DNA from: Escherichia phage vB_EcoM_PHB13
Length of the DNA stretch: 64,000 nt
Direction: 5' to 3' (one strand)
Sequence record: MK573636
Below the pieces are notes generated by a model. The model searched no databases and had not been told where the DNA came from. It worked only from the letters and a program-made list of their open reading frames with translations. Of this stretch, positions 33,281 to 34,024 are shown piece by piece (the first letter of the stretch is position 1; every line of letters starts with the position of its first letter). The translations under genes and the position numbers were made by a program.

Positions 33281-34024
33281 TTGGAGAGAGAAAAAGTGAA
33301 CATCAAAAAGTTTATTGTTGATGTTCTGGAGGCGAAAAGCGGAAATAGACTAAACTCAAATCTTTTTAAAGAAAATAAAATTCCAGAAATGGAAAAATTG
33401 TATCCTGCGGAATTTCAGATTATAAGGAATGAGTTTAAGTTCTGTAATGGAGGTCTCAGAAATCAACAACCATATAACGAGGCTGTTTATAGATTGCGCC
33501 ACGGAATAACAGGAATAGTTAAATGTGCAAGATGCCCAAATCCCGTAAATTATCATACATACTCTAGAGGCTATCATAAATTTTGCTGTTCTCGTTGCGC
33601 ATCGTTGGACCAGGCACAAAACATAAAGATTGAACGAGAATGCGCTAAATGTGGTAAACCATTTGTTGCAATAAACGCATCTCAAAAGTATTGTTCTGAT
33701 GCGTGTCGATTGTTTGAGAAGCGAGAGCGAGAACTAGATAGGCCATATCATCATGCAGAAAATGGTATAAAAATATCAAAAAGAGAAGCGTTGGAAATTT
33801 TAGGTAGAGTTGACAATTGCGAGATATGCGGTGTAAAATTCATAAATGAACGATGCGGCGAGAGAAAACGCCAAAAGTGGAAACATCTTGACCATAATCA
33901 TAAGACTGGTAAGATAAGAGGTGTTCTTTGTGGAAAATGTAATGCCGGATTAGGAATGTTCAAAGACGATCCTCAAATATTATATGCGGCATTGGAATAC
34001 CTGAAACGAACTGACGGAGAATGA
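33281..34024 (+). CDS. HNH / endonuclease VII-family nuclease with Cys-rich zinc fingers (probable homing endonuclease)
   Basis: C-terminal motif [23 protein letters not shown]; AT-rich relative to flanks. Confidence 0.6.
   Translation: [247 protein letters not shown]

Follow-up and report, generated by a model that had tools for sequence, protein, structure and literature searches.

Genomic context of the nuclease gene

The DNA analysed here, referred to as the window, is a stretch of 64 000 nucleotides (nt) from Escherichia phage vB_EcoM_PHB13 (sequence record MK573636), an RB49-like T4-type phage of the genus Krischvirus, presented in the opposite orientation to the RB49 record. Within it we examined a plus-strand gene for a nuclease of 242 amino acids (33296..34024, GTG start, TGA stop), located directly upstream of gene 39, which encodes the large subunit of topoisomerase II. 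A preliminary description of this DNA had suggested that the gene is probably a free-standing homing endonuclease, a suggestion supported by our comparisons on the grounds of sporadic presence, linkage to a foreign part of gene 39, constant position and purifying selection. We consider it likely that the gene encodes a free-standing homing endonuclease with a ββα-Me (HNH) domain of the Endo VII/Hpy99I type and a target in gene 39.

All genes surrounding the nuclease gene lie on the plus strand. Towards gene 39, dda (30533-31924) is followed by two small open reading frames (ORFs), dexA (32349-33017), the zinc ribbon gene 39.2 (33019-33192) and a hydrophobic ORF of 36 amino acids (33189-33299), a homologue of RB49p006.1 whose stop codon overlaps the GTG of the nuclease gene. 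Gene 39 (34031..35854, 607 amino acids), the presumed target gene, is of the fused 60+39 type and is unsplit in the window, with its ATG 6 nt past the nuclease gene. The nuclease gene is intergenic, between the 36-residue ORF and gene 39, and not inside an intron or intein. It had earlier been placed between dexA and gene 39; the gene 39 side of that slot is accurate, but dexA lies two genes further upstream and the immediate neighbour is the 36-residue ORF. A stretch of 4 kilobases (kb) around the nuclease gene matched 58 Krischvirus records at 90-99 % identity.

The full reading frame (33281..34024, plus strand) opens with an in-frame TTG at 33281 that is probably unused. The most likely translation start is GTG 33296, which is favoured by an upstream GGAG at 33282-33285, by the GTGA overlap with the stop of the 36-residue ORF and by GenBank usage, the same 242-residue product having been chosen by the annotators of G2248, E26, JEP8 and others. 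The gene is AT-rich, as previously remarked, but only modestly so: its guanine plus cytosine (GC) content is 37.0 % against a window mean of 40.5 % (standard deviation 2.2 %), at the 3.7th percentile of windows of the same length.

An optional insertion with precise empty sites

A tblastn search identified the nuclease gene in 12 Krischvirus records at an identity of at least 97 %, while 41 of 53 records lacked it, the 53 being those that matched the adjacent gene 39 segment; these counts include some RefSeq/GenBank duplicates. The slot had been characterized as variable in T4-like phages, and its occupancy here is indeed far from universal among relatives. RB49 and G37-3 both display a precise empty site, and comparison with these relatives defined the insertion: a carrier-only segment of 758 nt (33279..34036, plus strand) stands in for 19 nt (AAGAGGTTTAATAATGAGT) of the RB49/G37-3 site. 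In RB49, the 36-residue ORF reads straight into gene 39 (…GGTTATGTTATG|AAGAGGTTTAATAATGAGTGAG…). Besides the nuclease gene, the 758 nt segment supplies the small ORF with a different C-terminus, its last six codons being rewritten by the insertion, and gene 39 with a new ATG-TCT start.

A foreign 5' tract of gene 39 accompanies the nuclease gene

Alignment of the window to RB49 revealed that divergence from RB49 extends beyond the nuclease gene. In the approximately 1.2 kb before the insertion point, identity was 96-100 % (93-100 % in individual bins of 60 nt); it fell to 63-89 % over 34031-34711, and returned to 93-100 % beyond. The divergent region (34031..34711, plus strand) comprises the first 227 codons (681 nt) of gene 39 and contains the presumed target or immunity region. 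Over its first 585 nt (195 codons), the tract was approximately 76 % identical to the RB49 allele at the nucleotide level and 84 % at the amino acid level. Synonymous and non-synonymous divergence (dS and dN) told the same story, with a dS of approximately 1.35 and a dN of 0.14 in the first 720 nt of gene 39, versus 0.11 and 0.001 in the remainder.

Carriage of this variant tract was closely linked to carriage of the nuclease gene. All 12 carriers possessed it (92-99 % identity), as did a single one of the 41 non-carriers, the other 40 being of the RB49 type at approximately 79 % (Fisher p = 5e-11, uncorrected for relatedness). The nearest relative of the tract was a metagenomic fragment, L014 (77.6 % nucleotide and 87 % amino acid identity); no closer donor was found in the phage collection, in which ordinary Krischvirus sequences stood at approximately 79 %. 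L014 also encoded the closest homologue of the nuclease (76 % amino acid identity). Because the same fragment is nearest for both, the nuclease gene and the tract fit a joint import from a divergent relative.

Carriers were distributed across differing flanking haplotypes. For example, the carriers E26 and JEP8 are assigned to the same species as GEC-3S, a phage without the gene. E26 and JEP8 differ from the window by approximately 7 % over 33536-34735 but by only 0-1 % on either side, and the confinement of this divergence to the block implies that the block is older than the present backbones. Within the variant tract of JK32 and Skers we also observed a short RB49-like patch at approximately 34195-34215, spanning about six adjacent variable sites, which looks like a small gene conversion.

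A nuclease family attached to the topoisomerase gene

A family profile search covering 5.8 billion proteins recovered the full-length architecture in only 12 clusters (at 90 % identity), after which there was a sharp fall to proteins with the nuclease domain alone. A scan of IMG/VR added, among the matches listed, only VR26 and further nuclease-domain-only proteins. Genomic context was checked for ten full-length members (the window, L013, L014, VR7, VR26, RZ, L028, L029, L030 and L031), and in all ten the gene was directly upstream of a topoisomerase large-subunit gene, with a gap of 0-7 nt or an overlap. This held even in L029, which has a ligase and a metallophosphatase gene upstream in place of dexA and 39.2. 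All 11 family genes checked were intact ORFs, with dN/dS ratios of 0.05-0.29 in unsaturated pairs; the nuclease ORF is under purifying selection.

A second polymorphism was identified in Gaprivervirus, where a homologue is present in VR7, VR26 and RZ but missing from VR20. In the comparison of VR26 with VR20, a similar upstream flank was followed by the insertion, then by approximately 1.1 kb of gene 39 at 57-79 % identity, and then by sequence at 87-97 %. The flanks of VR7 and VR20 were essentially identical, and the difference in gene 39 was limited to codons 3-19, where 18 nt changes affected 11 codons; eight of these codon changes were synonymous, including two Ser TCN/AGY switches, and codons 20-88 displayed no changes at all. 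Such a 57 nt patch would be the expected look of a donor-derived, cleavage-resistant target region beside a homing endonuclease gene, and the VR7/VR20 comparison narrows the candidate target to about 50 nt.

Two further features of this genus were noted. In Gaprivervirus (VR7, L008 3440-3505; homologous site in VR20), a GC-rich hairpin with a T-run, together with a TATAAT-like element, immediately precedes the insertion. The nuclease ATG of VR7 is preceded by CCTCC and lacks a Shine-Dalgarno sequence, suggestive of weak translation.

Whether the 12 clusters form an undescribed lineage of free-standing homing endonucleases, specialized for the beginning of the large-subunit gene of topoisomerase II in T4-type phages and moving as a composite block, is in our judgement evenly balanced. 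If they do, the composite block would carry from 19 to about 365 codons of gene 39 (227 here), and with every homing event a portion of an essential enzyme would be exchanged between phage lineages. In T4-type phages, marker exclusion and mosaicism are both shaped by free-standing homing endonucleases; those characterized so far belong, to our knowledge, to the Seg (GIY-YIG) and Mob (HNH) families. A family of the Endo VII/Hpy99I type linked to the topoisomerase gene would be a further instance of intronless homing.

Homing or passive mosaicism

Comparative hallmarks of a free-standing homing gene were observed at this locus, namely sporadic distribution with precise empty sites, an intergenic location and co-transfer of the flank of a neighbouring gene. 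A model of homing would operate as follows. During mixed infection, the enzyme would be made early from a promoter that normally serves gene 39, and would nick or cut the gene 39 allele of the phage without the nuclease gene. The break would be resected and then repaired off the carrier genome, such that the recipient would acquire the nuclease gene along with the 5' part of gene 39 from the carrier, which presumably resists cutting. In Krischvirus, the transferred block would amount to approximately 1.43 kb (33279-34711), made up of the nuclease gene and codons 1-227 of gene 39. We infer from these comparisons that the protein is an active, site-specific nuclease, that inheritance of its gene is biased and that its homing target is probably the topoisomerase II large-subunit gene. 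As described for T4, free-standing endonucleases cut a neighbouring gene and co-convert flanking sequence (PMC2988022).

The main rival to homing is a passive mosaic module, made up of the nuclease gene with the foreign 5' part of gene 39 and acquired a single time by an ancestral Krischvirus through ordinary or illegitimate recombination. General recombination among T4-like phages would have reshuffled it since, and the nuclease would no longer drive its own spread or would never have done so. Several results favour this explanation or weigh against homing. The last fixed allele difference is at 34711 in all 13 variant genomes; variable co-conversion endpoints were sought in Krischvirus, but the right edge was always 34711, and repeated events within the genus are unsupported. 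With a right edge so fixed, a single introgression followed by ordinary recombination fits as well as repeated homing. T4-like genomes are mosaic in general, and here the flanks are mosaic in carriers and non-carriers alike. G37-3 possesses the variant tract without the nuclease gene, so allele and gene are separable. A codon-aligned comparison of gene 39 5' ends from 11 carriers and 5 non-carriers yielded no shared target motif that consistently separates the two groups, and a limited literature search found no family member whose cleavage or biased inheritance had been assayed biochemically or genetically.

Set against passive mosaicism, Gaprivervirus independently displays the same pairing of the gene with a divergent 5' portion of gene 39, with tracts of 57 nt and about 1.1 kb, and gene 39 is the immediate neighbour in all ten family members examined, including L029 with its unrelated upstream genes. 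An inert passenger would likewise not be expected to be under purifying selection, as this ORF is. On this evidence we regard a passive module as unlikely and favour homing. The junction in G37-3 between the variant tract and the RB49-type empty site falls at codon 2/3 of gene 39, and since this recombination joint coincides with the insertion point, G37-3 is most simply read as a derivative that retained the variant allele after loss of the nuclease gene.

In intronless homing, the interval from the cut site to the endonuclease gene is always co-converted. Two regions of the Krischvirus gene 39 are compatible with a target: the first ~60 nt, if VR7/VR20 is taken as a guide, or the surroundings of nt 681, where the block has its fixed right edge. 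The system is testable in the natural pairs VR7/VR20 and G2248/RB49, with G37-3 as a predicted resistant empty recipient.

Domain structure and related nucleases

The last 70 residues of the protein matched the Pfam family Endonuclease_7 (PF02945; E = 5e-16, 58.8 bits against a cutoff of 23.6 bits), and PHROG endonuclease VII families were matched with E values up to 1e-20. The preliminary description had pointed to a C-terminal motif of the Endo VII/HNH family, which we located as DHNH…CxxCN at residues 199-220 (nt 33890 onward); it had also held that the lack of an HNH hit in profile searches would count against the idea, and the strong Endonuclease_7 match removes that objection. The catalytic residues D199, H200, H202 and N216 and the zinc cysteines C175/C178/C212/C215 are invariant in family alignments and align with those of T4 endonuclease VII and Hpy99I. 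The several cysteine-rich zinc fingers noted earlier correspond to twelve cysteines, invariant among six family members with 44-76 % identity to the window protein, that fall into three sets (C77/C80/C97/C101, C116/C119/C133/C137 and C175/C178/C212/C215) and would suffice for three four-cysteine zinc sites.

From its N-terminus, the protein comprises a mostly helical region (residues 1-70, 33296..33505), conserved only in the 12 full-length family clusters and presumed to be a DNA-binding or specificity module; two tandem zinc-ribbon modules of the form CxxC…C(x3)C, which hold the first two sets of invariant cysteines (33524..33706); and the ββα-Me nuclease domain (residues 173-242, 33812..34021), which holds the third set and is supported by Pfam, by alignment to Hpy99I and T4 endonuclease VII, and by Foldseek. 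An AlphaFold model, with a mean predicted local distance difference test score (pLDDT) of 74, displayed the helical residues 1-70, two zinc ribbons, a linker helix, the ββα core and one terminal helix.

The first zinc ribbon (residues 77-110, 33524-33625) raised the idea of a regulator of topoisomerase or gyrase that would act through YacG-like ribbons on the neighbouring enzyme. It gave a weak Pfam YacG match below cutoff (E = 0.031) and a Foldseek match to 4tma_K with a probability of 0.89 but an E value of 0.63. A family-profile search against PDB sequences did not recover YacG, and the CxxC…CSxxC ribbon is generic, being present also in the T7-like intron ORF of Yersinia phage Berlin. Such a role would moreover leave the intact nuclease active site unexplained, and we rate it the least probable of the alternatives considered.

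The nearest solved relative of the nuclease was Hpy99I (PDB 3fc3; phmmer E = 1.8e-9, family profile E = 8.7e-11, Foldseek probability 1.0), with which it shares the motif DHNHxTG…C..CNxGLGxFKD…EYLK. Hpy99I is a bacterial type II restriction enzyme with a different N-terminal domain, and the similarity is limited to the last 70-90 residues. This kinship with a restriction enzyme, together with purifying selection on the ORF and the fact that such enzymes are known to cause marker exclusion as a side effect in T4 (PMC2988022), lends some weight to a nuclease that benefits the phage in competition by cutting the DNA of co-infecting relatives or of the host. Most relatives, however, do not carry the gene, and strict attachment to gene 39 is predicted by a homing target and not by a general nuclease. 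We therefore consider a competition role improbable as an account of its own; it also overlaps with homing rather than excluding it.

The match to T4 endonuclease VII (gp49) was weaker, at E = 0.009 with the single sequence (residues 36-69 of the T4 chain) and 2.7e-4 with the profile (residues 21-73). The two proteins belong to the same Pfam family, and their zinc cysteines and D-H-x-H…N residues align. GenBank entries name the gene 'endonuclease VII', 'recombination endonuclease' or 'putative endonuclease', and on this basis it could be a paralogue of gp49 acting as a second junction-resolving or repair endonuclease. RB49, however, has a canonical gene 49 (157 amino acids) beside nrdC at 39134..39607, which by coordinate mapping appears to lie just beyond the part of the genome covered by the window, and an approximate T4 gp49 probe matched nothing in the window except the motif of the nuclease gene. 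The part in common is a motif of 34 residues at 38 % identity. Domain order also differs: the nuclease core of the window protein lies at residues 173-220 of 242 and is followed by one helix, with ~25 residues past the ββα core, such that the long C-terminal region of the resolvase is missing. The position of T4 Glu65 (in our own numbering of the T4 sequence) is occupied by Leu219, as in Hpy99I, and 41 of the 53 relatives manage without the gene. A Holliday-junction resolvase of the gp49 type was accordingly rejected and a gp49 paralogue appears very improbable; the labels 'endonuclease VII' and 'recombination endonuclease' are misleading, as the gene is not the resolvase. A limited literature search found no study of the nuclease gene.

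Among known free-standing endonucleases, T4 MobA offers the closest parallel in location, since both are HNH-superfamily genes attached to the topoisomerase large-subunit gene. MobA is found between genes 39 and 60, and its listed target is the topoisomerase large-subunit gene 39 (PMC2988022, Table 1). Both genes are predicted to start at GUG, share an overlap with the preceding ORF and have no dedicated promoter. MobA, in contrast, interrupts its gene from within and moves along with the gene 60 bypass element, whereas the window gene sits upstream of an unsplit gene 39. The proteins differ too, as the classical HNH motif of MobA is N-terminal and the Endo VII-type domain of the window protein is C-terminal. 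In members of the Mob family, a classical HNH domain occupies the N-terminus and the region C-terminal to it is distinct (PMC2988022). We rejected membership of this family (MobA-E) given the reversed domain order, the different Pfam family and the lack of BLASTP similarity to T4 MobA fragments.

An ORF in the DNA polymerase intron of Yersinia phage Berlin aligned with residues 113-236 of the window protein (30 % identity over 126 residues, E = 2e-14). The two share a zinc ribbon (the second module), a linker and the Endo VII-type nuclease domain, and both belong to PF02945. We take the Berlin ORF to be probably of the I-TslI type. It comprises 144 residues and sits in the intron of an essential replication gene, whereas the window gene is free-standing and its 242-residue product has an additional N-terminal helical region and a second zinc ribbon. 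I-PfoP3I, the intron endonuclease of phage Pf-WMP3, was found to be unrelated (HNH_3 family, BLASTP E = 0.88).

Candidate expression signals

A site resembling an early-type promoter (TTGACA-16-TATGAT; 33202..33229, plus strand) was identified upstream of the insertion and is identical in sequence in RB49. As a consensus match, it would be predicted to drive both the nuclease gene and gene 39. Two further promoter-like sites, likewise matched by consensus, occur on the plus strand in the 3' end of the nuclease gene (33810-33839 and 34001-34030), the second stopping 1 nt before the gene 39 ATG, and these might restore expression of gene 39. Free-standing endonuclease genes of T4 are without promoters of their own, use upstream ones and carry promoters for the downstream gene (PMC2988022), an arrangement that the consensus matches in the window parallel.

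An imperfect hairpin of 14 pairs (33229-33261) was also found within the 36-residue ORF, between the upstream promoter-like site and the nuclease start, in a stretch that RB49 shares without change. Although scored as terminator-like, the hairpin has a poor T tract; it could modulate downstream expression.

Variation in neighbouring genes

A second endonuclease gene was observed on the other side of gene 39. It encodes a 187-residue protein with HNH_3 and AP2 domains, and is optional, being positioned directly downstream of gene 39 in some Krischviruses, including JSE (L019 4217-4780), G37-3 (L003 4393-4956) and G5211 (L005 4956-5519). The window is without it, the corresponding site being at ~35855, while G5211 carries both endonuclease genes, one on each side of gene 39. 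If the composite-block reading of the present family holds, the topoisomerase gene would be a hotspot for three unrelated endonuclease families: this one, MobA in T4 and the downstream HNH_3 + AP2 gene.

The start of gene 39 is set 54 nt late in several GenBank records (G2248, MIZ6, FL04 and G5211), corresponding to 34085 in the window, at the Met of MYIGS. Use of the ATG at 34031 gives back the conserved N-terminus MSEF…LKRPSMYIGS, as in RB49.

At the junction of the 36-residue ORF and the nuclease gene, a run of A at 33290-33299 (GAAAAAGTGA) appears prone to insertion and deletion. The small ORF is annotated as an in-frame fusion with the nuclease gene in MIZ4, and apparently in MIZ5 too, and is longer (132 nt) in JK32 and Skers.

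Further upstream, the region of small ORFs between dda and dexA (31950-32350) is strongly mosaic among Krischviruses. FL04 is just 46-78 % identical to the window there, and GEC-3S, G37-3 and Skers carry an extra ORF of 177 nt in the same region.

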